64,000 nucleotides of DNA from positions 8,913 to 72,912 of the forward strand of contig JAUJNB010000012.1 of the NCBI GenBank assembly GCA_030446545.1, in the 5' to 3' direction. The translations under genes were made by a program, and so were the position numbers. The notes beneath the pieces are model-generated. The model saw nothing but the letters and a program-made list of their open reading frames with translations. It was not told the DNA's origin and ran no database searches. The stretch comes from Acidimicrobiales bacterium. Lineage in GTDB: Bacteria > Actinomycetota > Acidimicrobiia > Acidimicrobiales > CADCSY01. Below are positions 19,885 through 64,000 of the stretch, piece by piece; position 1 is the first letter of the stretch; each line of letters begins with the position of its first letter.

Positions 19885-19889
19885 CGCGG

Positions 19890-19927
19890 CCGACAGGCCG
19901 TCGAGCGCAGCGAGCTTGGCCTGTCGG
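19890..19927 (+). terminator. Hairpin downstream of the PPIase gene
   Basis: CCGACAGGCC ..18 nt.. GGCCTGTCGG, a 10-bp perfect stem 6 nt after the stop. Confidence 0.5.
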
Positions 19928-20149
19928 GGCCAAGTAGCAGGGCCGCCGAAGGTGGATCGATGCCATGGTGATGGTTGACATCCCGCCTTCGCACCAGTAG
20001 ACCGGCACGGTTCGTTGGGCGAGCTCTCCCGCGCGGGCGGGCGGCGCAACGGACGTGGGGCAGGTGCCACCGGGATGGTGGACAGCGGCCCCGAACGGCA
20101 AAATCAACAGCAAGAACCAACCTATCCCTACGAGTACACATGAGAGGAG

Positions 20150-23100
20150 GTGAAATTGGTGAAGAGTAAAGATGACATGGGGGGCGCCCGAAAGGGCACC
20201 GCGATGGGGCTGGCGGCAACGGCAGTCTCCGTGGTGCTTGTGATGCTCTTCGGCGGAACCGCGTCTGCACAGACGACGACCACCGAGCCGGCACCACGGC
20301 GACCCCCGAGACCACACCTGCAGCGACCAACGCCTCTGACGGTGGTGGAAGCGCGGACACCGGCGACGCCGGTGCCACAGGCAACGAGACAGGAACCACG
20401 GTCAACCAGACGGCCCCGCCCACGAAGATGTGTGGGACCGGTGGCTGCGTCGTGATCGTCGACCAGGACGCAGACGTTTCCAACAGCGGGAGCGCCTCGG
20501 CCACCACGGGCGGCAACACGGCGACCGGCAACGCCAGCGACAACACGGCGACCGGTGAGGCCAGACCGCAACCTCGGGTTCGGGCACGGGGTCGGGCGTG
20601 AGCAACAACACGGCCGGCACCTCCAACACGTCGGACGGCAGTGCCGGCATCACGACCGGCCCGGCCACGGCGACGGGGAACCACTCCACCACGACGATCA
20701 ATCAGATCGCCGACGTGGAGATCTCCGACGAGGACTGCGGTGGTAGGTGCCTTGGTGGCGTAGTGCTCATCAACCAGGGCGCGGACGTCTCCAACACCGG
20801 AGATGCCACCGCGACCACGGGTGACAACACCGCTACCGGCAACACCAGCGACAACGACGCTTCGACGTCCCAGGACAACGAAGCCGACGGTTCTGACGAC
20901 GGCGATGCCATCGCCAGCAACAACGGCACGGCCAGCAACTCGTCCGACGGCGAGGCCAGCATCAACACTGGCGACGCCGACGCGACGGGCAACCGGTCGA
21001 CCACCAACGTCAACCAGATTGCCAACGTCTCTATGGCCGGCAGCCTGGGTGGCGTCGTGTTGATCAACCAGGGCGCGAACGTCTCCAACTCGGGGACGGC
21101 AACCGCCGACACTGGTGGCAACACGGCCATGGGCAACGAGTCGAACAACGACTCGAACACAGTGCAGGGTGCGGTCTCTGGAGCCGGTCCACCTGATGGC
21201 GACGCCATCGCCACCAACGACGGACAGGCACACAACTCGTCCGACGGCAGCGCCGACATCACAACTGGCGACGCCACCGCGACGGGAAACCACTCTGAAA
21301 CCAACATCACCCAGTCGGCAGACGTCGACATGAACGGCGGCATCGCCCTGATCGACCAGGACAGCGATGTCGAGAACAGCGGTTCGGCGAGCGCGGACAC
21401 CGGTGACAACGAAGCCACCGGCAACGACTCCGAGAACGACGCTGACAGCGAGCAGGACGCCGATGCTGACGCCGATGACGGCGACAACACGGTTGCGGCC
21501 AACTTCGGGCTGGCGGAGAACGCCAGCGACGGGTCGGCCGAGATCACCACGGGAGACGCCGACGCCACCGGCAACGCGGCGACCACGAACATCGCCCAGA
21601 CCGCTGACGTCGAGGGTGCCCATTCGCCCTCATCGACCAGGACAGCGACGTGGACAACCACGGCGACGCCGAGGCCGACACCGGTGACAACGAAGCCACC
21701 GGCAACGACTCGGACAACGACGCTGACAACGACCAGGAAGCCGACGCCGACGCAGACGACGCCGACGGCTCCAGCGTGGCCAGCAACTTCGGTGAAGCCA
21801 GCAACGACTCCGACGGCACGGCCACCATCCATTCCGGTGACGCCACCGCCACGGGGAACGACTCCACCACCAACGTCCTCCAGGAGGCCGATGTGGACGG
21901 CGGTTCCTTCGCTCTGATCGAGCAGGACACCGACGTCGACAACGAGGGTGACGCTGACGCCGACACCGGCGACAACGAAGCCACCGGCAACGACTCCGAC
22001 AACGAGGCCGACAACGACCAGGACGCCGATTCCGGTGACGGCGAGGACAACAGCGTCGCCGCCAACTTCGGCTCGGTCACCAACTCCAGTGACGGCACCG
22101 CCGACATCACCACCGGTGATGCCACGGCGACCGGCAACGCCGCCGACGACAACGTGGCCCAGGTGGTCAACGTCGAAGGCGGTGACGACGACGACTTCGG
22201 CTTCGTGCTCGTCGAGCAGGACGTCGACATCGACAACGAGGGCGACGCTGACGCCGACACCGGCGACAACGAAGCCACCGGCAACCGCTCGGACAACGAG
22301 GCGGACAACGACCAGGAAGCCGACGCTGGCGACAGCGACGGCAACACGGTCGCCACCAACTTCGCCAGCACTGCAACCAACGGCCACCATCGAGACCGGT
22401 GACGCCACTGCTGTCGGCGTCGACGCATCGACATCGTGCAGGTGGTCAACGCCGAGACCGGTGACGGCTCGAGCGACGACGACCAACGTCGGCTGCACGG
22501 TGCGTCAACAGCGACACTGCGACGACGGCAACGGCTTCGGTGCTCTCATCGAGCAGGACGCCGACATGGACAACGACGGTGAGGCCAAGGCCAAGACCGG
22601 CGGCAACGACGCCACCGGCAACAGCTCCGACAACGACGTCGGCCACCAACGACCAGGACGCCGACGCTGATGACAGCGACGGCAACCTGATCGTCACCAA
22701 CGACGCCGGTCAGACCGAGCAACGACTCCGACGGCTCCGCCACCATCGAGACCGGTGACGCGCCACCATCGAGACCGGTGGCCCACGCCGTGGGCGTCGA
22801 CGCCAACACCAACATCGGCCAGTTGGCTTCGGCCGACATCGAGGATGACGGCTTCGTCATCTCCGATCAGGACGTCGACGTCGACAACGACGGTGACGCC
22901 GAGGCCGACACCGGTGACAACGACGCCACCGGCAACACCTCGGACAACGACGCTGACAACGACCAGGACGCCGACGCCGAAGACGGCGACGGCGACACGG
23001 TCGTGACCAACGACGCCACGACCAGCAACGACTCCGACGGCACCGCCACCATCGACACCGGTGATGCGCAGGCCGTGGGCGTCGAAGCCAACACCAACAT

Positions 23101-25459
23101 CGGCCAGTTGGCTTCGGCCGACATCGAGGATGACGGCTTCGTCATCACCGATCAGGACGCCGACGTGAAGAACGACGGCGACGCCGAGGCCGACTCCGGC
23201 GACAACGACGCCGTGGGCAACGAGTCGGACAACGACGCTGACAACGACCAGGACGCCGACGCCGAAGACGGCGACGGCGACACGGTCGTCGTCAACAACA
23301 ACGCCACCACCAGCAACAACTCCGATGGCACCGCCAGCATCACGACCGACTGCGCATGCGCCATCGGCGTGCACGCCAACACCAACATCGGCCAGGTCGC
23401 CAATGGCGACATCGAGGGTGACGGCTTCGTCATCTCCGATCAGGACGCCAACGTCGAGAACGACGGTGACGCTGAGGCCGACTCCGGCAACAACGACGCC
23501 GTGGGCAACGAGTCGGACAACGACGCTGACAACGACCAGGACGCCGACGCCGAAGACGGCGACGGCGACACGGTCGTGACCAACAGCGCCGACACCAGCA
23601 ACGACTCCGACGGCACGGCGACCATCGACACCGGTGACGCCACGGCCTTCGGTGTGGTGGCTGACACCAACATCGTCCAGTCGGTCTCGGCCGACATCGA
23701 GGGTGACGGCTTGCGACAGCGTCATCACCGATCAGGACGCCAAGGTGAAGAACGACGGTGACGCCAGGGCCAACTCCGGCCGCAACGACGCCGTGGGCAA
23801 CGAGTCGGACAACGACGCTCGGACAACGACCAGGACGCCGACGCCGAAGACGGCGACGGCGACACGGTGGTGAGCAACAACGCCGACACCAGCAACGACT
23901 CCGACGGCACCGCCGAGATCACCACCGGTGATGCGGCTGCGGTCGGGGTTCTCGCCGAACACCAGACATCGATCAGTCGGTCTCGGCCGACATCGAGGAT
24001 GACGGCTTCGTCATCTCCGACCAGGACGCCGACGTCGAAGAACGACGGTGACGCCGTGGCCGACACCGGTGACAACGACGCCACCGGCAACAAGTCGGAC
24101 AACGACGCTGACAACCGCCAGGACGCCGACGCCGAAGACGGCGACGGCGACACGGTGGTGACCAACAACGCCGACACCAGCAACGACTCCGACGGCAAGG
24201 CGACCATCGACACCGGTGACGCCACCGCCTTCGGTGTGGTCGCTGACACCGACATCGACCAGTCGGTCTCGGCCGACATCGAGGATGACGGCTTTCGTCA
24301 TCACCGATCAGGACGCCAAGGTGAAGAACGACGGCGACGCCAGGGCCAACTCCGGCCGCAACGACGCTGTGGGCAACAAGTCGGACAACGACGCTGACAA
24401 CGACCAGGACGCCGACGCCGAAGACGGCGATGACGCCGACACCGGCGACAACACGCCAACAACGCCGACACGCCAGCAACGCCAGCTCCGACGCCGAAGA
24501 TGGCGACCGAGATCACCATCGGTGATGCGGCTGCGGTCGCTGAGATCTCACCGGTGAAGGCGGCACTCGCCGACATCGATCAGTCGGTCTCGGCCGACAT
24601 CGAGGATGACGGCTTCGTCATCACCGATCAGGACGCCAAGGTGAAGAACGACGGTGACGCCGTGGCCAAGTCCGGTGACAACGACGCCGTGGGCAACAAG
24701 TCGGACAACGACGCTGACAACGACCAGGACGCCGACGCCGAAGACGGCGACGACGACACGGTGGTCAGCAACAACGCCGACACCAGCAACGACTCCGACG
24801 GCAAGGCGACCATCGACACCGGTGACGCCACGGCCTTCGGTGTGGTCGCCGACACCGACATCGACCAGTCGGTCGACGGCCGACATCGAGGACGACGGCT
24901 TCGGCTTCGTCATCACCGACCAGGACGCCAAGGTGAAGAACGACGGCGACGCCAGGGCCGACACCGGCCGCAACGACGCACCGGCAACAAGTCGGACAAC
25001 GACGCTGACAACCGCCAGGACGCCGACGCCGAAGACGGCGATGGCGACACGGTGGTCAGCAACAACGCCGACACCAGCAACGACTCCGACGGTTCGGCCG
25101 ACATCAAGACCGGGTCCGCCAATGCCATTGGCATTGGTGGCCGCGACGGTGTCGACCTTCCCGAGATCCCTGACCTCTGCGAGGACAAGGATGACAAGGA
25201 CAAGCCGGACGAGGGCGACAAGCCCAAGCCCGACGAGGGCGACAAGCCCAAGCCCGACGAGGGCGACAAGCCCAAGCCCGACGACGGCGACAAGGACCGG
25301 AAGCCTCCGGCCAAGCCCGTGGTCGAGAAGTTCAAAGACGTGAAGGTCAAGGCTCCGGCCCTGGCCGTCACCGGCGTCTCGGTTGCGGTCCAGGTGCTTC
25401 TTGGACTGCTGCTGCTCGCCCTTGGCCTCTTCCTTCGCCGGAAGGGTCAGGCGGCGTAG
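20150..25459 (+). CDS. Giant (~1,770 aa) poly-acidic tandem-repeat cell-surface protein with a signal peptide and a C-terminal LAVTG sortase sorting signal. Multiple apparent frameshifts and small duplications.
   Basis: GAGGAGG RBS. Signal peptide MGLAATAVSVVLVMLFGGTASAQ. About 16 repeat units. C-terminal (DEGDKPKP)x3 stalk at 25208-25279, then LAVTG, a 20-aa hydrophobic helix and RRKG. Frames 20150-20455, 20598-21917, 21650-22402, 22778-23761, 23867-24397 and 24500-25459 all read the same repeat. Confidence 0.8.
20440..25110 (+). repeat. Coding tandem array of about 16 units of ~285 bp (95 aa). The units from 22.8 to 25.1 kb are near-identical.
   Basis: The string gacatcgagga(t/g)gacggcttcgtcatc recurs at about 22837, 23122, 23407, 23693, 23986, 24268, 24597 and 24882, mostly 285 bp apart. 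More diverged units (..LINQGA(D/N)VSN.., ..LIDQDSDV(E/D)N..) run back to about 20445. Confidence 0.9.
25361..25456 (+). other. Cell-wall sorting signal (LAVTG, hydrophobic helix, RRKG tail)
   Basis: Codons ctg gcc gtc acc ggc at 25361-25375, followed by VSVAVQVLLGLLLLALGLFL and RRKGQAA. Confidence 0.8.
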
Positions 25460-25473
25460 TTTCAGCGCCGTTT

Positions 25474-25507
25474 GAAGGAGGGGGTGGCTTCGGCCGCCCC
25501 CTCTTTC
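25474..25507 (+). terminator. Strong stem-loop terminator after the repeat-protein gene
   Basis: GAAGGAGGGGGTGGC-TTCG-GCCGCCCCCTCTTTC, a 15-bp stem (two G-U pairs) with a UUCG tetraloop, 15 nt after the stop. Confidence 0.7.
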
Positions 25508-42150: not shown

Positions 42151-43620
42151 CTAGGCCTCGGACTCCGACCGTCGGCTCAACAGCCACGCCCCGACCAGGG
42201 CCACGGCGGCCGAGACCACCAGAGGCCCGTCACCCAGTCGGGTGTAGAGGGTGTGGCCCCGGCGCCGCTCGATGTCGGTGGTGAGCACGGCGGGCCGGCC
42301 CAGGTCGCTCTGGCGGCGGACGGTCCCGTCGGGGGTGACCACGGCCGAGAACCCCGTGGGGGCGGCCTGGACGACGGCCCGGCCTGACTCGATGGCCCGC
42401 AGTCGGGCGGCTCCGAGCTCGAGGGCGGGCATCTGGGTGGTGGGGTAGGACGAGGCGTTGGTGGGGACCAGTACCACCTCGGCCCCCTGGTGCAGGGCGG
42501 CCCGCACCCGGCGGGGGAAGAACACCTCGAAGGAGATGACCACGCCCAGGTCGCCGGCGGGGGTGGCCAGGAGCCCCGGCCCCTCTCCGGGCACGACGTC
42601 GCGTGGCACTGCCGACACGTCGGCGAAGCGCGCGACCAGCGGCCGGAAGGGGATTCGCTCACCGAACGGCACCACCTGGAGCTTGCGGTAGCGGTCGAGC
42701 AGGGCGCCGTCCGGCCCCCATGCCGCGGCCAGGTTGTGGCGCACGTCGCCCCGGCTCTCGCTCACCCCCGAGACGATGGTCAACCCCAGACGTCGGGCCA
42801 GATCACCCACCTCCCGGGAACGGGGCGAGTCGGCGATGTCGCCGTCGACCCGTATCCCGTCCTCGGGCCACAGCACCAGGTCGACCCCGTCAGCCAGCTC
42901 CTCGGTCGCGGTCATCAGCGCCGGCAGCCCGGGACCCGAGGATCCTTCGATGGCCCGCATGCCGCGCACTCCGCCGGTTTGGACCACGGCCAGGTCGAGC
43001 GTTCCCGCCACCCGGCCTCGGGGAGCGAGGACGCCGGCGAGGCTGAAGACGACGACGACGGCGCCGGCCACCGCCCCCGCCCGCCATCGTCGCCGGGCCA
43101 GCGCCGCCAGGCCGGTGCCGGCCACCCCCACCAGGGCGGCCACGACGAGACTGCCACCCAGCCGGGCGGCCTCGGCCAGGGGCCCGCCGATCTGGGTCTG
43201 GGCCAGGGTGGCGATGGGCACCCCTCCGAAGGGCCAGAAGCCCCGGAAGGCCTCGACCAGCACCAGGGCGGCGGGCAGGCCCAGGACCTTGCCCCTGCCC
43301 CCGGGGGCGACGGCCACGGCCAGGGCGAACAGGCCGGCCTCGACGGCCACGCCCAGGGCGAAGCCCACCAGGTGGAACTCGGTCAGCCACACCAGGCCGG
43401 GACCGAGGAAGCCGAGCCCCGACACGGCCCCGACGACCAGGCGCCGTAGCAGGCCGGCCCGGTGGAGCGAAGCGGCCAACAGCCCGGCCCCGACCAGGGC
43501 GAGGGGCCACCAACCGAACGGTGGGAGCCCGGCACTGAGCAGCACACCGGCCACCAGGGCCAGCCCGAGTCGAGCCCAGCGGTGCGCGCCGGCGTCGTCC
43601 GCTCCGGGCGGGGCGTCCAC
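42151..43620 (-). CDS. lnt: Apolipoprotein N-acyltransferase
   Basis: Intact 489 aa. N-terminal multi-TM domain, then a CN-hydrolase domain (LVLWPE, KLQVVPFGE, VVISFEVFF, LVPTNASSY) and a C-terminal TM. Confidence 0.9.
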   Translation of the reverse strand: MDAPPGADDAGAHRWARLGLALVAGVLLSAGLPPFGWWPLALVGAGLLAASLHRAGLLRRLVVGAVSGLGFLGPGLVWLTEFHLVGFALGVAVEAGLFALAVAVAPGGRGKVLGLPAALVLVEAFRGFWPFGGVPIATLAQTQIGGPLAEAARLGGSLVVAALVGVAGTGLAALARRRWRAGAVAGAVVVVFSLAGVLAPRGRVAGTLDLAVVQTGGVRGMRAIEGSSGPGLPALMTATEELADGVDLVLWPEDGIRVDGDIADSPRSREVGDLARRLGLTIVSGVSESRGDVRHNLAAAWGPDGALLDRYRKLQVVPFGERIPFRPLVARFADVSAVPRDVVPGEGPGLLATPAGDLGVVISFEVFFPRRVRAALHQGAEVVLVPTNASSYPTTQMPALELGAARLRAIESGRAVVQAAPTGFSAVVTPDGTVRRQSDLGRPAVLTTDIERRRGHTLYTRLGDGPLVVSAAVALVGAWLLSRRSESEA

Positions 43621-43631
43621 CCCGGTGTCCC

Positions 43632-44348
43632 TCAGGGGCCGACGGACCTCGGTGGGGAGGTGGGGGCCAGGTCGACCACCTCGGCCAGGGCCAGGCGGAC
43701 CACGTAGCGGTACTGGGCCGACCCCGGGGGATGGCAGGCGAAGAGGGTGGCGGTGGGCTCGGGGGTCTGGTCCACGATGCGCATGGCGTCGGGCGTGACC
43801 ACTTCGTGGCCGGTCACCCGGTAGGTGGACCGCTCGGCGCCCACGGTGAAGATCACGGCATCGCCGGCTTCGAGCTGGTCGATGTTGCGGAAGGGGCCAC
43901 CGGCGGTGACGCGGTGGCCGGCGACGACCACGTTGCCCGGGTCGCCGGGCAACGCCGTTCCGGGCCAGTGGCTGGGGCCCCGGTCGATGGAGTTGAGCGA
44001 GATGCCCTGGTTGAGCGGGGAGGCCAGACCGAGCCGGGGGATCTCGATGGTGCCCAGGATGACCACGGGCTCGGGCGCGTAGGGGTCTTCGGGCGGGTCG
44101 ACCGGCGTGGGCAGTCTTGGCGGCGCCGGAGCGGTGGCGGGGGGCACCGGGGGCGGGTCGTCGTCATCGTCATCGTCGAAGAGCCCCAGCCCCAGCCCCA
44201 GGGCCGTGACCCCTCCCGCCGGTGGCGTGGGATCACCGCTTCGGGCCAGGCCGGCGAGACCGGCCGCCTGCCCGGCCAGGGTGGCGGCCAACAGCACGCA
44301 GGTGAGGGGCAGGAGCCCCCGACGGACCAGGAGGCGGAAGCGGGTCAC
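43632..44348 (-). CDS. Sortase (class E-like) transpeptidase
   Basis: GTG start VTRFRLLVRRGLLPLTCVLLAATLAG (anchor). Poly-Asp/Pro linker. Catalytic His in VVVAGHRVT, Cys in TLFACHPPGS, Arg in YRYVVRL. Confidence 0.85.
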   Translation of the reverse strand: MTRFRLLVRRGLLPLTCVLLAATLAGQAAGLAGLARSGDPTPPAGGVTALGLGLGLFDDDDDDDPPPVPPATAPAPPRLPTPVDPPEDPYAPEPVVILGTIEIPRLGLASPLNQGISLNSIDRGPSHWPGTALPGDPGNVVVAGHRVTAGGPFRNIDQLEAGDAVIFTVGAERSTYRVTGHEVVTPDAMRIVDQTPEPTATLFACHPPGSAQYRYVVRLALAEVVDLAPTSPPRSVGP

Positions 44349-44451
44349 TGGCGCATGGTAGGGGCTCGGGGCGCCCGCGGGGTAGCGAGAGGACAAGGAG
44401 CACGACAGACGTCGGCAACCTGCCGGAAACGGTGACTGGCAACACTGTCTC

Positions 44452-45615
44452 ATGGCCGGTGGAACGACGGGGCCGATCGCCGCTCAGGCCCCCTTGGTGG
44501 GCTTCCGCGTGGGGATCGCCGCCCACCGGGGGGGACTGGAGCAGGCTGACGCCCTGCGGGCCGCAGGAGCGGAGCCGGTGCTCGGCGCGGTGGTGGGTCC
44601 CCTGCCCCCGGCCCTGGCCGAAGCGCTGGAGGCCGCCACCGAGGACGTGGTGGCCCGTCCCCCCTCGGTCGTGGTCCTCACCTCCGTGGCCGGAGCGGAG
44701 GGATGGTTGAGCTCGGCGGAGGGCGAGGGTGGCGACGCCCCGCTGCGGGAGGTGCTCGCCGGCGCCACCGTGGTGGCCCAAGGCGACGCCACCGCCGAGG
44801 CGGCGGCGGCGCTGGGCCTGGCCCTGCGGGGAACGTTGCCCCTTGCCGTGGTCGACGCCCGGGCCCAACTCGATCGGCTGACGGGTGGCCTCACCGGGGC
44901 CCGGGTGGCGGTGCAGACCGAAGCCGGGCCGGGGCCTGTCCGTCCGCCGATCGACCTGGTGGCCGGCCTGGTGGCGGCGGGGATCGACGTGGCCGAGGTC
45001 GCCGTCCCGGCGGCCACACCGGCCGAGGACCCGCAGGCGGCCCGGCGACTCGTCGAGGCGGTGGTGGAAGGCCGGGTCGACGCGGTCACCTTCACCGCCC
45101 CCGACGAGGTGCGTGCCTTCGCCCGTCTGGCCGAGCACTGGGGTGCCTGGGACGAGGCCCGGACGGTGCTCGGTGAGGTGGTGGTGGTGGCGTGCGTGCG
45201 CCGCTCGTGCGTGGGAGCCGCCACCTCGGTGGGGATCAGGAGCGTGGTCCGGCCCCAACGCCCCCGGGTGGGGGCCATGGTCGACGTGCTGGGCGCCCGC
45301 CTGGAGACCAACGTGGTGTGCCTGGAGCTGGGGGGGGTCCCGGTGGTGCTCCGGGGGGCGCTGGCCCAAGTCGACGGTGAGGAGGCGTGGTTGACCGAAC
45401 GCGAGCGGAGCCTGCTGTGGACCCTGGCCCGCCGGCCCGGCATGGTGGTGGCCAAGGCCGAGTTGTTGCGCCGGGTCTGGCGGTCCGACGGCATCGACGG
45501 CATCGACAGTCACGCCGTGGAGGTGACCGTCGCCCGGCTCCGCCGTCGCCTGGGTGTGGCCGGTGTCGGCCTTCAGACGGTTCCCCGCCGGGGCTACCGC
45601 CTGGTTCCGGGCTAG
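44452..45615 (+). CDS. Uroporphyrinogen-III synthase-like (HemD) domain fused to an OmpR/PhoB-type winged-helix DNA-binding domain
   Basis: Intact 387 aa. The C-terminus LTERERSLLWTLARRPGMVVAKAELLRRVW...HAVEVTVARLRRRLG..LQTVPRRGYRL is Trans_reg_C. The N-terminal two-lobe Ala/Val-rich domain is HemD-like. The architecture matches M. tuberculosis Rv0260c as I recall it. Confidence 0.8.
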   Translation: MAGGTTGPIAAQAPLVGFRVGIAAHRGGLEQADALRAAGAEPVLGAVVGPLPPALAEALEAATEDVVARPPSVVVLTSVAGAEGWLSSAEGEGGDAPLREVLAGATVVAQGDATAEAAAALGLALRGTLPLAVVDARAQLDRLTGGLTGARVAVQTEAGPGPVRPPIDLVAGLVAAGIDVAEVAVPAATPAEDPQAARRLVEAVVEGRVDAVTFTAPDEVRAFARLAEHWGAWDEARTVLGEVVVVACVRRSCVGAATSVGIRSVVRPQRPRVGAMVDVLGARLETNVVCLELGGVPVVLRGALAQVDGEEAWLTERERSLLWTLARRPGMVVAKAELLRRVWRSDGIDGIDSHAVEVTVARLRRRLGVAGVGLQTVPRRGYRLVPG

Positions 45616-45862
45616 ACCACGACGCCGTACGGGCTGGCCGAGATGGGGATGACGAGGTCGACGTCGCTGACCCGGACCTACTCCCCGCCCCGCACTTCGG
45701 CGCGTCTACCGAGCGGGCGTGGTGATCCCCTCCATGCGCAAGCGAGCGGTGGACCTCCGGGGCGAGCTGGTGATCGCCGCCCTCCCCGACGGGGAACGAG
45801 GCTGTCGGCCACCTTCCCCCTCGACGCTAACGTGGCTTCGAATTGACTTCTGGGGGGGTGCG

Positions 45863-46261
45863 GTGTTCGATCCTGGCGTTCCTCATCCCGGCTTGCGGCC
45901 AGAGCCCCTGCAGTTCCCGTTGGCGGCGGCCCGAGCGGCGATGGCTGCCATCAGGGCCAAGATCGAGGACCTCGCATCCTTTCGGGCCGGCCACGGCGAC
46001 GCTGCGGCCGAGGCTCGGGTGGGATTCGAGGGAAGAGCCCGCCAGGGTTTCGACCGAGCCTTCGAAGATGGGATGGCCGACATCGATCACTCTCGACGCC
46101 AACTCGAGGACGACCTGGATGATCTGGAACGGCTGGTCGCCGAGGCGCAGCGAGCCATCGAAGCTCGCGCCGACGAGATCGTCGGATGGCAGCAGCGGTT
46201 GGATGCCTGGAACGAGGCCATGACGGTGACGCTCGAATCTCTCGACCGAGCCCGCCCATGA
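45863..46261 (+). CDS. Small all-helical protein, WXG100-like or toxin-helper candidate (start uncertain: GTG 45863 or ATG 45939)
   Basis: Coiled-coil-like sequence with a central GFEGRARQGFDRAFE, reminiscent of W-x-G..F. Its stop overlaps the next gene's ATG (ATGA at 46258-46261). Lower GC than the flanks. Confidence 0.4.
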   Translation: MFDPGVPHPGLRPEPLQFPLAAARAAMAAIRAKIEDLASFRAGHGDAAAEARVGFEGRARQGFDRAFEDGMADIDHSRRQLEDDLDDLERLVAEAQRAIEARADEIVGWQQRLDAWNEAMTVTLESLDRARP

Positions 46262-47241
46262 GCGAGCGGATCAGTGGTGACCCGGATCGCCTGGAGTCCT
46301 ATTCGGCGCGCACGCTCGCCATGGTCGGGTGGGAACGCGGTTCGGTTGCCGAGTACTCCCACGCGCTGGGAAGGTTCCTGGAGGCCGAACCCAACGACTT
46401 CGGTGACGGTGGGGTGGTCGACCGGACGGCGCAGTTGGAGCGGCTCGTGGACGGCTTCGAGGCCCTGGATGCCCAGCCGGAGGCCTTCGCCTTCGCCCTG
46501 CGCCAACTGGACCGTACCAGCGCCGAGGTCCTGTCGACCATCGACGCCGAGACGTTCTCGACCCTCGTCGCCCAACAACTGGCCGAGGAGCTCGAGCCGG
46601 ACGGCGGACTGTCGGGGGCCGACCTGGCGACACTGGTCCTGGACCTGATCGGGATGTTCGACCCCACGCCCATCGCCGACGGCGCATCGGGACTGTTGAG
46701 CCTGTTCCGGGGGGAATGGGCCCAGGCCGGGTTGTCGGTGGCGGCCATGATCCCCTACCTCGGCGACGCCGGCAAGGTCTTGAAGTTCGGGAAGATGCTG
46801 GAGAGGTTCCAGCACCTGGCCAAGGTGTCCGGTGACACGGCCAAGCTCGAGAGGATCCTGAAGTCCCTCAAGCATGTCGATTGGAAGAACCCGGGCAAGC
46901 TCAACGAGGCATTGGGAACGATGAACCGCCTGGCCGGTGACGCCGCCAAGCGGTACCGCGACCCGAAGGTGCTGCAAGCTGCCCAGAAGCGAGGCCTTCC
47001 CACCGAAGGACCGGTTCCCTTCGTGCCACCCAAGAAGTGGGACGCCAAGAATCCGCCCACCGAACCGTTCCGGACGCCGGGCGGATTGAAATGGGGCACC
47101 AGGGACGCCTACGGCAACGGTTGGGTGTGGGATCCCCACAAGATGGAGTGGGACGTGCAGATCGAGTCCGACAAGTTCGGGCTGTTCTCCCCCGACGGCA
47201 GGCACGCCAATATCTCGTCCGAAGGGCACGTGACCCACTGA
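46258..47241 (+). CDS. Modular toxin-like protein: helical N-terminal domain, Gly-rich hydrophobic linker, ~100-aa basic C-terminal module
   Basis: Intact 327 aa. The linker LIGMFDPTPIADGASGLLSLFRGEWAQAGLSVAAMIPYLGDAGKVLKFGK resembles pre-toxin linkers. The C-terminus reads GNGWVWDPHKMEWDVQIESDKFGLFSPDGRHANISSEGHVTH. Its stop overlaps the next ATG (TGATG). Confidence 0.5.
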   Translation: MSERISGDPDRLESYSARTLAMVGWERGSVAEYSHALGRFLEAEPNDFGDGGVVDRTAQLERLVDGFEALDAQPEAFAFALRQLDRTSAEVLSTIDAETFSTLVAQQLAEELEPDGGLSGADLATLVLDLIGMFDPTPIADGASGLLSLFRGEWAQAGLSVAAMIPYLGDAGKVLKFGKMLERFQHLAKVSGDTAKLERILKSLKHVDWKNPGKLNEALGTMNRLAGDAAKRYRDPKVLQAAQKRGLPTEGPVPFVPPKKWDAKNPPTEPFRTPGGLKWGTRDAYGNGWVWDPHKMEWDVQIESDKFGLFSPDGRHANISSEGHVTH

Positions 47242-48104
47242 TGCCCTACCGCACGGACGACGTCGTGGCCCACGTGCGGCTGCACCTGGCCGCCTCCAGC
47301 CTCACCGAAGTGCTCCATCGATGCTGGTCCCTCATCGAGGAGTTGCCGGCGGTCGGAATGGAGGCGGCGCCCGTTGCACCGGACATCTACCTGGTCAAGT
47401 TGGTTCTCGTCGAGGAGTCCCGGGACGAAGAGAGCAGTGTCGACGCCTTGCGCCGCGTGGCGATCCCACTGCTGGCCAGGTTCGACCTGGGTGAGGAGTA
47501 CTTCGTGCTCGACGAATCCCAGCGAAAGACCCTGGGAGCGTCCGTCTACTACCCGGAGCTCGTCGCCGAGCTGGTGGAGGGGTGTGAACAGGTGGTCCTG
47601 GGGGTCTGGATGGGAGATTCGGTCGATGACTTCTACGACACGGTCGAGTCCCTGGACATCGACGAAGGGGAGCAACCCCAGATCGACGAGTCCGATCTGG
47701 TGGAGCTGGGTCAGTTCCTCGAACAGATGCACGCCACCAAGGTCCTTCTCGTGGCCGACATCGTTGCTGTCGACGGCATCGAGGCTCGTGACCAGATCCG
47801 CAGCCTTGCCGCCCGCGTCTGCTCCGAACCCCTGGTCGGCGAACCGACGCTCGGGCCCGACGGCAGCATCCGGGTCGAGGTCGCGGTGGGGATGTCCGAC
47901 GACGGTCCCGACGAAACGTATCGGGAGGTCGTCGCCCAGCTCGACCTGTCGGGTTGGGACGTGGTGGAGCGCACACCCAGCCTGGTGCGGGCGGTGTGGT
48001 CCTCGCCACAACCGACCGCTGGTGTCGCTCGCCTGGAACTGCGGATCGGCCCGGACGTGGGCGTTCGTAGCGACGGATCGCCACCCGTGCCGAGCGGCTC
48101 CTAG
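47241..48104 (+). CDS. Acidic cytoplasmic protein, putative cognate immunity protein
   Basis: Intact 287 aa, translationally coupled to the toxin-like gene. Very acidic (runs of D/E). No signal peptide and no recognisable family. Confidence 0.4.
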   Translation: MPYRTDDVVAHVRLHLAASSLTEVLHRCWSLIEELPAVGMEAAPVAPDIYLVKLVLVEESRDEESSVDALRRVAIPLLARFDLGEEYFVLDESQRKTLGASVYYPELVAELVEGCEQVVLGVWMGDSVDDFYDTVESLDIDEGEQPQIDESDLVELGQFLEQMHATKVLLVADIVAVDGIEARDQIRSLAARVCSEPLVGEPTLGPDGSIRVEVAVGMSDDGPDETYREVVAQLDLSGWDVVERTPSLVRAVWSSPQPTAGVARLELRIGPDVGVRSDGSPPVPSGS

Positions 48105-48175
48105 CTGGTGAGGCTGGTCAGTTCGCCAGACCCGGTCAGGGCGGGCCCAGGCCAGGTTGGGGAGCCGCTCCAGGG

Positions 48176-49545
48176 CTACCCGGGAGCGCGCAGGTAGCAC
48201 CACCACGTGAGCAGCATGCACGAGGCGTAGAAGGCGATGAAGGCGATGAAGGCGGCCTGGGGCCCGCCGGTGGTGTTGGTGGACAGGCCGAAGCCCTGGG
48301 GGATGAGGAAGCCGCCGTAGGCGCCGATGGCCGAGATGATCCCGAGGGCGGCCGCGCTCTCCCGGCGGCCGGACGTGGCCACGGCCGCGGCGTCCACCAC
48401 CGCGCCGGCCTCGGTGGCTTGGCGCTCGAGGTGGGCCCGGAAGATCACCGGCACCATCCGGAAGGTGGAGCCGTTGCCCACCCCGGTGGCCACGAAGAGC
48501 ACCAGGAACATGGCCAGGAACCCGGCGAAGGCCCAGGACTGGTCCTTGTTGGCCAGGAAGAAGAGCACCCCCACCACGGCCGTGCCCATGACCCCGAAGT
48601 TGGCCACGGTGACCCGGGCGCCGCCCAGCCGGTCCGCCAGCCACCCCCCGGCGGGGCGGGAGATCGAGCCCACCAGGGGGCCCAGGAAGGCGTACTTGAT
48701 GGCGTTGGGGTCGGCGAACTGGCCCTTGATGAGCAGGGGCAGGCCGGCCGAGTAGCCGATGAAGGAGCCGAAGGTGCCGACGTAGAGCCACGACATGGTC
48801 CAGGTGTGGCGCCGGCGGACCACTGCGGCCTGGTCCCGGAACGAGGAGCGGGCCGTGGACAGGTTGTCCATGAAGCGCCAGGCGCAGAAGGCCGCAGCCA
48901 GGATGAAGGGGATGAGCATCAGCCCGATGTTCTGCAGGTGCAGGGCCCCGTCGGCGCCCTGGTTCCCCCCACCACAGCGAGGGCACCGGCGGTGACGGCG
49001 AAGGGGGCCAGGAGCTGGAGGACGGCCACCCCGAGATTGCCGCCGGCGGCGTTCAGGCCCAGCGCCAGGCCCTTGCGGGCGTTGGGGTAGAAGAACGAGA
49101 TGTTGGCCATGCTGGAGGCGAAGTTGCCTCCGCCGAGGCCGGCGGTGGCCGCCGCCGCCAACAGCGCCCAGTAGGGCGTCGACGGGTTGGCGACCATGAT
49201 CACGAGCAGGGTGGTGGGGATCAGCAGGAGCAGGGCGCTGACGATCGTCCAGTTGCGGCCGCCGAAGCGGGGCACGGCGAAGGTGTAGGGGAAGCGCACC
49301 GTGGCGCCCACCAGGTTGGGCACAGCCACGAGGGTGAAGAGCTGGCCCGACGAGAGGTCGAAGCCGGCGTCGTTGAGGCGGATGGCGACCACGCTCCAGG
49401 TGAGCCACACCGAGAAGCCCAGGAACTCGGCGAAGATCGACCACACCAGGTTCCGCCTGGCCACCTTCTGGCCGATCGTGGCCCAGAAGGTCTCGTCCTC
49501 GGGGTCCCACTGCTCGATCCAGTGCGAACGGCTCATGTCAGCCAC
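48176..49545 (-). CDS. narK: MFS nitrate/nitrite transporter NarK (one apparent frameshift in a 6-nt homopolymer at 48965-48970)
   Basis: WDPEDETFW..NLVWSIFAEFLGFSVW..GGRNWT..GGGNFASSMANISFFYP..GLNAAGGNLG, then GTFGSFIGYSAGLP..GGWLADRLGG..ATGVGNGSTF. Overlaps the nirA stop by 8 nt. Confidence 0.9.
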
Positions 49546-51514
49546 CTGCGTAGTTGGCGGCGGGCGCCGGGGGCAGGGCGGCGGTCACCCGGACCGCCCC
49601 GTCGACGACGGTCACGGGCAGACAGCGAACAGCCTCGTCGGTGGGGCCGGCCAGCGCTGCCCCCGTGCGCACGTCGAAGGTGCCACCGTGGCGGGGGCAC
49701 TCCAGTGACGTTCCCCGCAGCGTGCCCTCACCGAGCGACGCGCCGGCGTGGGGGCAGCTGTCGGCCACCGCGCAGAACGAGCCGTCGACGTTGGCCAGGG
49801 CGACGGGCGTACCGCCGGCGTCGACCGTGGTGACCGAGCCCGGCGCCAGGTCACCCACCCGGGCCACGGCCACCGAGCGGGAGCCGCCACTGGCGGCCAC
49901 CTCGGGCTCGGGCCCGCTGGCCCAGCGCTCGGCCATGACCGACTCCAGGTGGCGGGCGAAGGCGTCGTGTCCGATGCGCTGCACGGCCGAGCCCATGCCC
50001 TCGCCTTCATGGCGCATGGCCTCCCAGATGCCCACCACCGCCTCGACGGTGGCCGGCACGTCGGCGGCCGCCACCCGTCCCACCACCTCGCCCACCCGAC
50101 CGGCACCGATGTCGGCGCCCAGGTACACGTGGTAGCCGTCGCGCGTGGCGCCGCCGATGCGCACCTTGGAGCCGGCCAGGCCGATGTCGCCGGCCTGGTG
50201 CTGGGCACAGGAGTTGGGGCAGCCCGAGACGTGCACGCGCAGGGCGGAGTTGCGGCCCAGCCCGGCGCTGGCCAATAAGGCCTTGCCGGCGTCGGGGGCG
50301 GTGGTGATGCCCAAGGCGCACACGGCCGAGCCGGTGCAGGCCCGCACCGATGCGGTGTGGGCCTCACCCGAGAGGAAGAGGCCCCGGGTGGCCAGGACCT
50401 GGCGCACGGTGGCCACCGCCGCCACCCCGACGTTGCGCAGCACGATGTTCTGGTCTCGGCTCACGTTGATGCCACCGTCGCCGTGGCGGTCGGCCAGGTC
50501 GCACACCAGCTCCAGCTCAGAGCCGTTGGTGTCGCCGAGGGGGATGTCGACGGTGAGCGTGGCCAGCCCCGGGGTGCGTTGCGGCCGCACCCCCGCCGAC
50601 CAACCCCCGGGGGGGACATGGGCGAGGATGGCCACCCGATCGGCCTCGGGCAGCACCTCGACCGGGGGGGGCGGGTCGTGGGGACGATTCCGGGCGGCGG
50701 CAAAGGCCTGGTCCCAGGCGGCCCGGAAGGCCGCCTCGCCGAGGCGCTCGACCACGAACTTCATCCGGCCCTTGGTGGGCTTCTCCAGGTCGCCGTGATC
50801 GACGAACACCTCGATGAGGGCCTCGGCCGCCGCCTGCACGTCTAGGCGGGCCACGAAGTCGGCCACCTTGACGGCCAGGAACGGGGCCTTGCCCAGGCTC
50901 CCGCCGGCCCACAGCTCGTAGCCGGGTTCATCGTCTCGTAGCACCGAGACGAAGCCGGCGTCGTTGAGCCGGGCGTCGGTGCGGCAGCGGGGGGAACCAC
51001 CGAAGGCCATGTTGATGCGGCTGGGCAGCACCAGGTTGAGCTCGGCCGAGCGGGCCACGATGGCGTCGCTCACGGCCCGGGCGTCGGGGAGGCAGTCGAA
51101 GGGCTCGTCCAAGCTGATGCCGGCGTCCTCGGAGCACATGACGTTGCGCAGGGTGTGGCCGCAGCCCGAGCGGGTGGTCATGCCCACCTCGGTCACGGCG
51201 TCGAGCAGGGCCGGGATGCGCCGGGCGTCCACCCAGTGCAGCTCGAAGTTCTGTCGGGTGGTGAGGTGCAGCCAGTCGGGCCCGAACGAGCGGGAGATCC
51301 GGGCCAGGCCCCGGGCCTGGGGAGTGGGCAGGGCACCCCCGGGATTGCGCACCCGGACCATGAACACCCCGGGCTGCTCCTGGGTGCACACGCCCCAGGT
51401 CTTGAGCGCGTAGCGGTCCTCGGGGCTCAGCCAGCCGTCGCCGTCGCGCTCCAGGCGGGGCAGGTCGACGGGCAGGCCGGCTTGCTTGGCGGCGGGGATG
51501 TCGGGGGCGGCCAT
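49538..51514 (-). CDS. nirA: Ferredoxin-type siroheme nitrite/sulfite reductase fused to a C-terminal Rieske [2Fe-2S] (NirD-like) domain
   Basis: Intact, read from the ATG at 51514 (MAAPDIPAAK). Two NIR_SIR halves. Siroheme/4Fe-4S Cys cluster RACTGSAVCALG..VSGCPNSCAQHQ. The C-terminal ~105 aa carry CPHAGASL..CPRHGGTF. Confidence 0.9.
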   Translation of the reverse strand: MAAPDIPAAKQAGLPVDLPRLERDGDGWLSPEDRYALKTWGVCTQEQPGVFMVRVRNPGGALPTPQARGLARISRSFGPDWLHLTTRQNFELHWVDARRIPALLDAVTEVGMTTRSGCGHTLRNVMCSEDAGISLDEPFDCLPDARAVSDAIVARSAELNLVLPSRINMAFGGSPRCRTDARLNDAGFVSVLRDDEPGYELWAGGSLGKAPFLAVKVADFVARLDVQAAAEALIEVFVDHGDLEKPTKGRMKFVVERLGEAAFRAAWDQAFAAARNRPHDPPPPVEVLPEADRVAILAHVPPGGWSAGVRPQRTPGLATLTVDIPLGDTNGSELELVCDLADRHGDGGINVSRDQNIVLRNVGVAAVATVRQVLATRGLFLSGEAHTASVRACTGSAVCALGITTAPDAGKALLASAGLGRNSALRVHVSGCPNSCAQHQAGDIGLAGSKVRIGGATRDGYHVYLGADIGAGRVGEVVGRVAAADVPATVEAVVGIWEAMRHEGEGMGSAVQRIGHDAFARHLESVMAERWASGPEPEVAASGGSRSVAVARVGDLAPGSVTTVDAGGTPVALANVDGSFCAVADSCPHAGASLGEGTLRGTSLECPRHGGTFDVRTGAALAGPTDEAVRCLPVTVVDGAVRVTAALPPAPAANYAGG

Positions 51515-51612
51515 GGCCACGACGCTAAGAAGCGGGTGTTGCCGGCGTGGACCCGGGGTGTTTCCATCGCACGACGGCTCGTGCACAACCGGTCCCGAGG
51601 CCGAGAGAAGTC

Positions 51613-60211: not shown

Positions 60212-63200
60212 TCAGATGTCCTTGGCCATGTTGGCGAAGCGGGTGTAATGGTCCAGGAAGGCCAGGCGGTCCATGCCGGTGGGGCCCGAGCGGTGCTTGG
60301 CCACCAGGACCTCGGCCGTGCCCCGGTCGGGTGACTCGGGATGGTAGAGCTCGTCTCGGTACAAGAACACCACCACGTCGGCGTCCTGCTCGAGGCTGTT
60401 CTCGACCACGATGCCGTTGGCCACGAAGTTGTGGGTCTCGGCCACGGTGGCGTCGAAGACGGGCTGGGTGCCTCGGGGCTCGATGGCCACGACCGGATCC
60501 CAGCGGACGTCGGCCCGGGCCCGGCGGTCGAGGGCGGCGTCGTCGAGGGCGGCCGCCACCTGGGCCAGGCGGTGGCGGCTGGAGACCGTTCGCCCCCCTT
60601 CCGAGCGCCCGCTCTGGGCAGCCATGCCGGCCAGGGCGTGGTCGGGGGAGCAAAGGGATGCCCACTCGGGCCGGTTGCCCCTCGGCTCGTCCGTGACCCG
60701 GTCGCCGGCCATCATTTCGACGAACCGCCCGCGGCTCTCGTCCCCCTGGATGCTCAACCGGGCGCGCCCGGGCTCAACACCGGGCCCGGGGAGGGTCACA
60801 CGACTGTGGACGCCCAGGCGAAGGAGGAGCGTCTGCAAGTCGTCGAGCAGGCGGGTGTTGGCCGAGACGCAGTGCAGACGGGGTCGATGTCCGTGGTGCG
60901 CACGCCCCTGACCCGGAGGCCACAGGGCGTCGAGGAAGGCGACCAGCGCCTCATCGGGCAGGGCGAAGACCGCGGGGGGGATGACCGGACGGTCGGCCGT
61001 CCCGCCGTCGACCGTCTCGGCCACCTCCAGGGCCACCGCCCGGACTCTTGCGGGGTCCCAATCAGCGCGTTGGCTCGGCACCGGCACCCGCCGGGGGACG
61101 GCCACCCGGGTGCCCAGGGACAGCTCGTCGAGGCGGAGCCATCCGTCGACGGTGAGGAACGGGTGGTTGGCACTGGCGTCGATGCGCCGGCCCGACCCCA
61201 GCCGGAGTTGGAAGACCGGCTTGGTCCCGCTCGGGAAGACGTGGGTCATGGTGCCCGGCACCAGCGCCAGGTCGCGGTCGAGCGTCCAGACCGGGATGTC
61301 GCGCTCGCCGCTGAGCAGCAGCTCGCCCATGGTCACCTCGGCCCCGGTGTCGGAGCGCAGCACCCGGGCGTCGGCGGTCAGGCAGCCGCTCTCGCGGAGG
61401 TCGGCCAACATGGGGCGCTTGTCGGCCCGCAGCTCCAGGCCCCGGGAGAGCTGGGAGAGGGCGACCACGGGCGTCTGCAGCTCGCGGGCCAGGACCTTGA
61501 GCCCCCGGCTGATCTCCGACACCTCCACCTGTCGGTTCTCGGCACGATCGCGCCCGGTCATGAGCTGGAGGTAGTCGACGATCACGATGCCGAGATCTCC
61601 GAGCCTCGACTTGAGGCGCCGGGACTTGGCCCGGATCTCGAGGACGGTCGCCCTCGGGTTGTCGTCGATGTAGAGGGGGGCCTCGGCCAGGCGGCCGATG
61701 GCATGGCTGATCTTGGTCCAGTCGGACTCTGCCAGCCTGCCGTTGCGCATGCGGGTGCTGTCGACCCGCGCCTCGGAGGCGAGGAGGCGCTGGGTGATCT
61801 CCAGGTGGCTCATCTCGAGGGAGAAGAACAGCACCGGACGGTGAGCCTCGAGCGCAGCGTGAGCGGCCATGCCGAGGGCGAAGGCGGTGTTGTGGACGAA
61901 GATGTCGGCGGCCACGAAGTTGTGGTCGTCGGGCACGGTGAGGTCGTAGACCCGGGCCGGGCCGTCGGCGTCGATGGCCACGATCTCGTCCCACAACACG
62001 GTGGTGGACGCCGGCGGCGCCGGACGGTGGGTCCCGGCGGGAGCGGGCGCAGTCCACGCCGAAACGGCGCCACCCGGGGCATTGGGTCGGGGCGAGGCGG
62101 CGTAGGCCAGCGCCCGAGGGGCCGGGCTGGGCGTGGGCCGGTGCCCCCCGGCACCGCCACCATCTGGTTCGAGCCGGTGTTCCTCGTGCTCCTGATGGCG
62201 GGCCCGTCCGAGGAGGTTGGCCAGGGCGGACTCCTTGGAGAACATGCCGATCTGGGTGACCAGGGTGCGCACCTCGGCTACGGAGGTCACCTCGAGCTCG
62301 TGCGCCGGGCCCCGCCAGCCCTGGCGCTGGATGACCCGCCGGCGGTGGCGGGCGTTGATGCCGAAGCGCAACAGTAAGTGGGCGACGTCGGCCACCAGGG
62401 CCTCGGACCGGCTGCAATAGGAGATGCAGGCCCCCCCGCCGTCTCTGGTCGACCACCAGGCCGAGCCGTCGGCCCCCAGCAACCGGTTCAGGAACAGGGC
62501 CACCTGGTGGCGGGGCAGGCGGAACACCCGCTCGGGGACCGACCGGCGGTGCGGGCCTGCGTGCAGGTGGCTGTGGCCGTCGAAGAGCCCGAGCCAGGGA
62601 GCGGGCCCACCGGGCGGGGGGCGGAGGCGACAGGCGGAGGTGCCGGGCACGCTGCGATCGGCCACTGCGTCGACCCCGAGCTGCCGGGCGTGGTCGACCA
62701 GATCGTCCATCACCACCCGGGAGGCGGCGGTGAAGCGCACCGAGGCCCCGGTGTGGGCTCCGTCGCCCAGGAGGTAGGCGAGGAGGACGATCTCGGGCTC
62801 AGGCCTCGGTTCGTGACCGAACAGCGCCAGCTCCCGGGGAACGGCGACGGGGGTCCCCACTGCCACTTCGGCCAAGGGCCGCCAGCCCGTCGGGGTGAGG
62901 AAGGGGTGGGCGGCGGTGGTGCGTACCTCACGGCCCAGTCGGGTGCGGACCCGAAAGACCGGCTTCATCCCGTCGTCGACGAAGGCACTGGGGCGGCGCA
63001 GGCGGAGTTGGCCGTCGAGGGCGCCGAGGCTGGTGACCTCGACCCGGTCACCCCGGCGACCGGCCCGGTGCACCTCGTCCAGCGTCCGACGGGAGCCGGT
63101 GGCCGGGTCGACGAGCAGCGTGTCGCCGGTGAGGCACTTGCCGGTGGCGGGCCGGGCCCCCACGATCACCAGGCTGGAGGGCTGCAGGCCGGACAAGAGC

Positions 63201-63810
63201 TCGTCGAAGCCCCGGTAGCCGGTAGGCACCCCGGTGATGCTGTCGGCCTTCTCGTAGAGCATCTCCAGACGGGTCAGGGTGTGGTCGAGGAGGTCACGGA
63301 TGGGCGCCATGGTGTCGCTGACCCGGTGCTGGGCCACGTCGAAAACCATGGCCTCGGCCCGGTCGACGGCCTGGGCCACGTCGTCGGGGACCTGGTAGCC
63401 CATCTCGGCGATCTCCCCGGCCACGGCGATGAGACGGCGGAGGAGGGCGTGCTCGCCGACGATGCGGGCGTAGCGGGCGGCGCTGGAGGTGGCCGGGGTG
63501 CGCACCTGGAGCGAGACGAGGAGTCCCGGGCCCCCGATGTCACCGAGGAGGCCGGCCCGGCGCAGCTCCTCGCCCACCGTCACCGGGTCGGCCGGCTCGC
63601 CGGCGCTGTAGAGAGAGGTGATGGCGTCGAAGATGTGGCCGTGCACCGGCTTGTAGAAGTCTTCAGACGAGACCCCGAGCTCGGAGGCGGCGACGATGGC
63701 GTCCTTGCTCAACAGCATGGCACCGAGCAGAGACTCCTCGGCCTCGAGGTTGTAGGGAGGAATCCGGCCGTCACCCCGGCTCGAGCCGGGGAAACCTCGG
63801 CGACGGCCAT
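60212..63810 (-). CDS. dnaB: Replicative DNA helicase DnaB interrupted by two inteins (one apparent frameshift near 63765 at the extreme N-terminus)
   Basis: ATG at 63810 follows AGGAGG. PPYNLEAEESLLGAMLLS. Walker A GARPATGK|C. LFFSLEMS, IVDYLQLM, SRGLKVLARELQTPVVALSQLSR, LRESG|C, SLEQDADVVVFLYRDE, VAKHRSGPTG. Confidence 0.95.
60398..61384 (-). mobile_element. Intein 2 (329 aa) at the DnaB LRESG/S(I/L)EQD site, with a degenerate endonuclease domain and a non-canonical C-terminal Glu-Asn
   Basis: ESG|CLTADARVL .. SANHPFLT .. LVAFLDALW..LLDDLQTLLLRLGVHSRV .. VFDATVAETHNFVANGIVVEN|SLEQD. TGC at 61382-61384 and AAC at 60398-60400. Confidence 0.85.
61889..63136 (-). mobile_element. Intein 1 (416 aa) in the DnaB P-loop, with a LAGLIDADG homing-endonuclease domain
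   Basis: GK|CLTGDTLV .. TAAHPFLT (block B) .. LLAYLLGDG and FLNRLLGADGS (LAGLIDADG motifs) .. VYDLTVPDDHNFVAADIFVHN|T. The boundaries were checked codon by codon (TGC at 63134-63136, AAC at 61889-61891). Confidence 0.9.
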
Positions 63811-64000
63811 GCGGGAAGCCTCCTTCGGCGAGCCTGTGGGGTGCCAGGGGAACAACGCTGTGAATTAGGGGGAGCTACCTGTGGATAGGTGGACAGGGGG
63901 CCTGGGCCGCCCACCGGCCGCCCGTCGTCCCGACGCCGCGTCACGGCCGGACGAGCAAGCTGGCGGAGCGGTGCGTGAGGAGACGGCTCGGCGCCGGGTG

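Follow-up and report, generated by a model that had tools for sequence, protein, structure and literature searches.

A probable polymorphic-toxin cassette with an Ntox17 tip, a putative immunity protein and an Esx-like helper candidate in an Acidimicrobiales genome

A 64,000-nt stretch of contig JAUJNB010000012.1 from an Acidimicrobiales bacterium (hereafter the window, in whose numbering all coordinates are given) contains three coupled genes on the forward strand that probably form a self-contained, horizontally mobile polymorphic-toxin cassette, which would serve this soil actinobacterium in competition between bacteria. The first gene, g1, encodes a 132-amino-acid (aa) acidic helper protein, the second, g2, a 327-aa modular toxin whose C-terminal tip is assigned to the Ntox17 family, and the third, g3, a very acidic 287-aa protein that is the putative immunity protein. 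Systems of this kind are known, and the family of the tip already has a name; the immunity family, the toxin head and the helper are undescribed.

The three open reading frames (ORFs) are intact and translationally coupled, as the initial annotation had claimed: g1 (45863-46261, +) overlaps g2 (46258-47241, +) in an ATGA at 46258-46261, and g2 overlaps g3 (47241-48104, +) in a TGATG at 47239-47243, so that direct reading of the sequence finds both overlaps precisely where that annotation had put them. The reading frame of g1 is open upstream to 45719, and we place its GTG start at 45863 because a ribosome-binding site (GGGGGGG, 45852-45858, +, read directly) precedes it, because relatives of g1 begin with an identical V[FL]DPGV, and because blastn homology to each related locus sets in at 45852-45859. 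Measured against an 80%-identical copy of the unit, the ratio of nonsynonymous to synonymous substitution rates (dN/dS) is 0.18-0.30 across the three genes and 0.18 in g1; all three are real genes under purifying selection. Signal peptides and transmembrane segments are absent from all three proteins, and neither a sigma-70-like promoter nor an intrinsic terminator was found.

The reading of g2 as a modular toxin with a toxin tip, proposed earlier from the sequence by eye, is borne out by profile searches. The Pfam model Ntox17 (PF15524) matches the whole protein with 29.6 bits and the isolated tip with 33.2 bits, above the curated cut-off of 25, and relatives score 40-62 bits against the same model. 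Only 26 relatives were found in a search of 5.8 billion proteins, and the NCBI label of those that are annotated is "polymorphic toxin type 17 domain-containing protein." On this profile evidence the tip is a member of Ntox17, a family of uncharacterised activity. An alignment of 22 sequences resolves g2 into an acidic N-terminal helical domain, taken as the constant "trafficking" portion, that is co-inherited with g1 and shared with L015/P0021 (aa 1-105, 46258-46572), a Gly/Ala-rich pre-toxin linker (aa 111-176, 46588-46785), a basic helical subdomain (aa 177-241, 46786-46980) and the mostly beta Ntox17 tip (aa 242-327, 46981-47238). Across these 22 sequences W289, E297-W298-D299, H316, N318 and the C-terminal VTH (H327) of the tip are invariant or nearly so. 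Ntox17 was described as "mostly beta; ExD, H" (PMC3482391, Table 2), and the tip of g2 contains this ExD and His signature in a mostly beta structure, as published. AlphaFold2 models aa 171-327 with confidence (predicted local distance difference test, pLDDT, 79-94), placing helices first and then five strands, which lie in aa 268-319 (pLDDT 86-94); the basic helical subdomain folds with the tip in this model and is conserved across the Ntox17 relatives of this clade. A Foldseek search with the model finds no neighbor in the PDB (best E 0.87) or in BFVD (best E 0.31), and a profile search against PDB sequences finds no relative of the tip. The initial annotation had also described a basic C-terminal module of about 100 aa, which fits one part of this region and not another: the Pfam-defined tip, the last ~85 aa, is neutral (isoelectric point, pI, 7.1), whereas the helical stretch before it (aa 176-245) is basic (pI 10.5), as is the folded module of aa 171-327 (pI 9.8).

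Between head and tip, the linker has the consensus LSGADLATL.LD..G.FDPTP..DGASG..SLFRGEW.QAGLSVAAMIPYLGDAGK over aa 111-176; its alignment columns are near-invariant and its dN of 0.05 is the lowest in g2. The initial annotation had likened it to pre-toxin linkers; searched alone, it is matched by no Pfam model at E values up to 10. It is the sole segment common to g2 and the proteins P0022-P0026, whose N-termini and tips are different. The N-terminal domain has a maximum KD19 hydropathy of 1.36.

The modules of this system are exchanged between loci in both directions. At locus L013, a Hydro_N_hd head with an unrelated 111-aa upstream partner is joined to a linker and tip as in g2, and a 298-aa g3 homolog (34% identity, E 4e-23) starts within an overlap with the toxin's stop codon. 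L015/P0021 combines a g1 homolog (50% identity) and a g2-type N-terminal domain (63% over aa 1-104) with an unrelated Gly-rich hydrophobic tip, and the downstream gene is unrelated to g3, its product having a hydrophobic N-terminal half. In L011 and L012 (the latter from Kitasatospora aburaviensis) the Ntox17 tip also comes immediately after ALF-repeat proteins and, in P0017, behind a weak WXG100_2-like head on a contig that ends at the toxin. Because the tip is kept with g3 in L013 and the head with g1 in L015, we read the unit as a polymorphic toxin system: g1 belongs with the head and g3 with the tip, which on these comparisons is the behavior of such a system with a cognate immunity gene. 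Two details of these loci stand apart from this argument. In L015 (293-3567) three coupled genes that match no Pfam family come after the toxin gene, and its Gly-rich hydrophobic tip may be membrane-active. In L012 (8214-10585) and L011 (6861-10354) the ALF-repeat gene lies just upstream of a separately called gene for the linker and Ntox17 tip, with a gap of only 54 bp in L012, as if an umbrella-type toxin gene had been split or frameshifted.

The product of g3 is cytoplasmic by prediction and strongly acidic (pI 4.2; 55 D+E vs 21 K+R), and it has no Pfam match at E values up to 1 and no NCBIfam or PADLOC match, in agreement with the earlier description of a very acidic protein of no recognisable family. 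An exhaustive profile search of 1.84 billion proteins yields a family of 35 representatives, among which Pfam finds nothing except Vsr in a single gene call and one match at chance level. The pattern of profile-search matches divides g3 into module A (aa 1-125, 47241-47615) and module B (aa 146-278, 47676-48074), and members of the family occur as A alone, B alone, A-B and A-A-B; BLAST finds no significant internal repeat between the two modules (E 0.26). The AlphaFold2 model is alpha/beta and poor (mean pLDDT 60), and a profile search against PDB sequences finds no relative. A reading of g3 as ACT/ferredoxin-like was dropped as functional evidence, the tandem-fold Foldseek matches being generic (E 6e-3 or worse, TM ~0.2), and identity with Imm31, which is small and all-beta, is ruled out by the lack of a Pfam match and by the 287-aa alpha/beta model. 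Wherever the upstream side is intact, namely in the window, L009, L010, L001/L002 and L013, g3 homologs begin at the stop codon of the toxin gene, and they keep company with the tip although the N-terminal domain and the upstream partner change. This association supports the earlier assignment of g3 as the immunity gene; g2 and g3 are very probably a toxin-immunity pair, and we read g3 as a new family of cytoplasmic immunity proteins for actinobacterial Ntox17 toxins, in which binding and neutralisation would be the expected functions. As an observation apart, the gene call P0039 begins with a Vsr-like endonuclease, continues across what is left of an Ntox17 tip in another frame and ends in the first half of a g3-like protein; it may represent an orphaned remnant of tip and immunity gene next to vsr.

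The helper shares an invariant ARVGFEG..R..F motif with its five relatives, and the family has a conserved C-terminal motif, [WY]Q.R[LMV][DH]A, with an acidic residue at +5. When the g1-family profile is searched against 177,635 PDB sequences, the top three are ESAT-6 twice (1wa8_B and 3fav_B) and the Thermomonospora curvata Esx protein 4lws_A (E 0.026-0.028), the F-E-G of g1 being aligned on the W-G-G of ESAT-6. Taken alone, this similarity is a lead and not evidence of membership; it is strengthened by the genomic context of one relative. P0036 (in L016 and L017) is encoded two genes downstream of a protein of 1012 aa that contains two FtsK/SpoIIIE domains and in the PDB is best matched by T. 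curvata EccC (4nh0_A, E 7e-73), Bacillus subtilis YukB and mycobacterial EccC5, and a gene for a 165-aa protein with a W-E-G motif sits between the two (L016 61-4213; L017). Judged from its gene order, the P0036 locus is a classic eccC-esx arrangement, and the 165-aa protein and P0036 are likely an unannotated pair of Esx-like substrates. No other secretion-machine gene was seen beside any member of the g1 family. The earlier suggestion that g1 is WXG-like therefore stands in part: the weak similarity in PDB profile searches and the family member near eccC speak for it, whereas g1 itself falls below every Pfam threshold and has F-E-G in place of W-x-G. We infer type VII export of the complex between g1 and the N-terminal domain from the profile matches to ESAT-6-type proteins, the eccC context and the lack of a Sec signal in the three proteins, and we rate it at only a little better than even, the window showing no type VII gene.

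At least four different genomic surroundings are seen for the unit. It lies between a regulator gene and narK in the window and also in L008, a soil contig with 98.4% identity. In L009, which is 80% identical, it has an aldose epimerase gene on one side and the 3' end of narK on the other, with homology continuing to window position 48377; in L001, L002 and L005 (67%) it lies between ferritin and YceI genes, and in L010 upstream of DDAH/ArgZ-like genes. The left edge is conserved, with the onset of blastn homology at the g1 ribosome-binding site (45852 for L001, L002 and L005-L007; 45859 for L009), and on the right the homology with L001/L002 ends within g3, ~50 bp short of its 3' end. The cassette had been described by eye as AT-richer than its flanks, and computation agrees: its G+C content is 66.4%, vs a mean of 72.0% (sd 2.7) for windows of equal size, which makes it the 73rd lowest among 1236 windows, and the only other similarly low-G+C stretch of the window lies at ~19.5-25.5 kb. 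G+C at third codon positions is 0.73-0.87 in the cassette genes vs 0.88-0.98 in neighboring genes; part of the drop falls at codon position 2, and amino-acid composition therefore contributes to it. The unit is 3-7 points lower in G+C than its flanks in the window, L001, L009 and L010 but not in L013.

From this comparison of contexts we conclude that the three-gene unit is horizontally mobile. The earlier claim of an insertion between the regulator gene and narK thus holds as far as mobility, the four or more contexts and a G+C content below that of most hosts are concerned, whereas the 80%-identical relative is also beside narK and no empty site was found. Because the position on the narK side is shared with that relative, the insertion as reconstructed here is not very recent. 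A regulator-based scan of genome contigs for an empty regulator-narK site gave only two irrelevant loci. The contigs of four soil runs contain no cassette-less form over 44400-49700, and sequencing depth is even across both junctions; apparent cassette-less joints in these contigs have sides of 21-30 nt and were discarded as chance matches. A scan of metagenome contigs with the profile of the g2 N-terminal domain gave one 1.3-kb contig. We found no meaningful direct or inverted repeats at the flanks of the unit, no mobility genes beside it, no tRNA genes in the window and no Rfam matches in 43000-50000.

We propose the following mechanism. The g1 product would be a divergent Esx/WXG100-like hairpin that pairs with the N-terminal domain of g2 in a helical bundle, and a type VII (ESX-type) system encoded elsewhere in the genome would recognise and export this bundle. 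The exported linker and tip would then enter a neighboring cell, probably an actinobacterial one, where the Ntox17 module would attack a cytoplasmic target. In the producer and its kin, the acidic g3 protein would bind the basic toxin module one-to-one and block its activity, and the coupling through ATGA and TGATG would hold the three products in step. As for the target, Ntox17 is tabulated under "predicted metal-independent RNase toxins," its usual immunity protein being given as Imm31, and its describers predicted RNA cleavage through the conserved E-x-D and His (PMC3482391). That the tip of g2 acts as an RNase is doubtful in our estimate. One review places "NTox_17" among predicted pore-formers (PMC12288458).

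The arrangement can be compared with four described kinds of system. It agrees with the published Ntox17 systems (PMC3482391) in a tip above the cut-off, the ExD and His signature, the C-terminal position of the tip in a multi-domain protein, the order of toxin then immunity gene and the exchange of heads and tips. The published systems come from Proteobacteria and Firmicutes, where the tip is borne on RHS, MafB or TcdB/TcaC scaffolds, whereas g2 is actinobacterial and has no RHS repeats; their partner is the small all-beta Imm31, here replaced by an alpha/beta protein of 287 aa with two modules, whose family is unlisted, and an extra conserved basic helical subdomain precedes the tip here. 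The esxF-esxE-cpnT-ift locus of Mycobacterium tuberculosis (PMC7810871, PMC8092274) is likewise actinobacterial, with small Esx-type genes upstream of the toxin and an immunity gene directly downstream. It differs in having two helper genes to the one found here, which is not a bona fide WXG100 protein, and a TNT NAD+ glycohydrolase tip in place of Ntox17; CpnT also has a large outer-membrane channel domain, unlike the N-terminal domain of ~105 aa in g2, and targets host cells, whereas the targets here are likely other bacteria. In the LXG toxins of Firmicutes with Lap1/Lap2 (T7SSb, the b type of type VII secretion system; PMC9600955, PMC10801868), upstream small helical proteins bind the helical N-terminal domain in a secretion-competent complex, the same model that we propose for g1 and g2, and the polymorphic C-terminal tips each have a cognate downstream immunity gene. 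Unlike these, neither g1 nor the N-terminal domain of g2 matches LXG, DUF3130 or DUF3958, even at E values up to 10, and both phylum and presumably machine type (T7SSa, the a type) are different. The linker and Ntox17 tip behind ALF-repeat proteins in L011 and L012 recall the Streptomyces umbrella toxins, ALF repeats being the stalk type of UmbC (PMC11062931). By contrast, g2 itself has no ALF repeats according to Pfam, and no lectin or UmbB-like genes were seen beside it.

Several results weigh against the cassette as we interpret it. The g1 protein has no Pfam match at threshold and none to WXG100 (PF06013), the best family member, P0036, reaching 17.3 bits (E 0.0056) against a cut-off of 27.3. 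At 132 aa, it has F-E-G and no W-x-G motif. A direct hhalign comparison with ESAT-6 gives E 0.0057 with a probability of only 6.5%. The YxxxD/E secretion motif is absent, g1 being without Tyr and Y15 and Y33 of g2 without D/E at +4. The N-terminal domain of g2 has no Pfam match at E values up to 10 and no PDB profile match, is unrelated by hhalign to g1, to Hydro_N_hd or to the 165-aa protein of L016, and is modeled at a confidence below 50, AlphaFold2 leaving aa 1-170 without a model. The initial annotation had stated that the window holds no secretion-system core gene, and a Pfam scan of ~25 of its ~55 ORFs finds no type VII, type VI or other such gene. To these are to be added the assignment to pore-formers mentioned above, a literature search that found no published test of the activity of any Ntox17 protein, the finding of the cassette sequence in DNA runs of soil metagenomes only and in no RNA run, and the size of g3, which with 287 aa and two modules is large for an immunity protein.

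Some of these results would also fit a secreted toxin-immunity pair that leaves the cell by a non-type-VII route, whether an unrecognised exporter, a lysis-type release or an extracellular particle, with g1 as a stabilising chaperone. The failure of g1 to match any formal WXG100 definition, the N-terminal domain of no known family and the lack of type VII genes among the scanned ORFs all suit such a route, as do the ALF-repeat proteins that bear the tip in streptomycete-like genomes. We give this alternative a small but appreciable chance, in view of a g2 protein with neither ALF repeats nor a signal peptide, of eccC as the only secretion-machine gene seen beside the g1 family, and of the small helical partner gene 5' of a helical toxin head, which is a known type VII arrangement (PMC7810871, PMC10801868). 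The same lack of secretion genes and of signal peptides, in a compact, mobile and translationally coupled cassette, might instead point to an intracellular toxin-antitoxin or abortive-infection module, in which g2 is unexported, g3 restrains it until phage or stress intervenes and g1 is a regulator or chaperone; some polymorphic-toxin tips indeed turn up in toxin-antitoxin systems as well (Zhang et al., PMC3482391). Such a module is improbable, given that the toxin gene comes first and the immunity gene second, that the 170-aa head and linker are swapped for ALF-repeat, Hydro_N_hd and WXG-like heads in the manner of exported toxins (PMC3482391), and that a relative of g1 lies beside eccC; moreover, Pfam finds no DNA-binding domain in g1 or g3, and PADLOC finds no match for g2 or g3 and for g1 nothing beyond a coiled-coil match to JetC that is at chance level (E 0.02). 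A last alternative leaves the toxin in place and takes g3 for a second effector, an export adaptor or a passenger, self-protection being encoded elsewhere or unneeded. Its size, its poor structure model, its lack of relationship to Imm31, the published partner of Ntox17, and the 288-aa protein that follows the most divergent tip, in L011, and is missed by the g3 profile are what this alternative has on its side. The homologs that start at the toxin stop codon in five independent loci, the way they track the tip and not the head (the changed tip of L015 going with a changed downstream gene) and a cytoplasmic, strongly acidic protein opposite a basic toxin module make it very improbable.

For Firmicutes, it has been demonstrated that type VII systems mediate killing between bacteria. 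In a literature search we found no experimental case of such type VII killing in Actinobacteria outside the host-directed CpnT toxin. The helper described here is tied by comparative context to the gene of a type VII ATPase and thus bears on the matter of antibacterial T7SSa systems in environmental Actinobacteria. We propose, tentatively and with the chances somewhat against us, that g1 and the N-terminal domain of g2 are an undescribed actinobacterial module that loads antibacterial toxins onto T7SSa, that g3 founds a two-module immunity family and that the fold and activity of Ntox17 are without solved precedent. A T7SSa-loading module, if true, would be a functional counterpart of the Lap-LXG pairs of Firmicutes, and the three points together would yield a compact, transplantable system with which to ask whether T7SSa mediates interbacterial killing among environmental Actinobacteria. 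At 2.2 kb, the self-contained cassette is a handy test case for the type VII question and for a first activity and structure of Ntox17.

The surroundings of the cassette merit a brief description. The genes upstream are lnt (42151-43620, -), one for a sortase (43632-44453, -) and one for a HemD and OmpR-type regulator (44452-45615, +); downstream and convergent are narK (48176-49545, -) and nirA (49538-51586, -), followed by a gene for a 4Fe-4S protein. The narK gene is split in two frames, an N-terminal half at 48919-49545 and a C-terminal half at 48176-48940, both of which match MFS_1. In contigs from three of the four soil runs, one C is added after 48964 and one G after 48138, and two bases are missing at 48186. 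Because these contigs carry the extra C, the frameshift is probably an assembly error or a strain variant and not a real pseudogene. The nirA product (49538-51586, -) is a NirA-type nitrite/sulfite reductase fused to a C-terminal Rieske [2Fe-2S] domain.

Farther from the cassette, the other low-G+C stretch (~19500-25500) includes the coding sequence, at 22691-25459 (+), of a highly repetitive, extremely acidic protein rich in Asp, Asn and Thr, with units such as DNDADNDQDADAEDGDGDTVV..SNDSDGTATIDTGDA. The protein is broken up over at least three frames, has no Pfam match and ends in LAVTG, a hydrophobic stretch and RRKG, which we take to be an LAxTG-type sortase sorting signal; the sortase gene of the window is the one noted above at 43632-44453. 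The gene of the replicative helicase DnaB (60212-63874, -) is interrupted by inteins, the DnaB_C domain being matched in three stretches, together with two Intein_splicing stretches and a LAGLIDADG homing-endonuclease domain.

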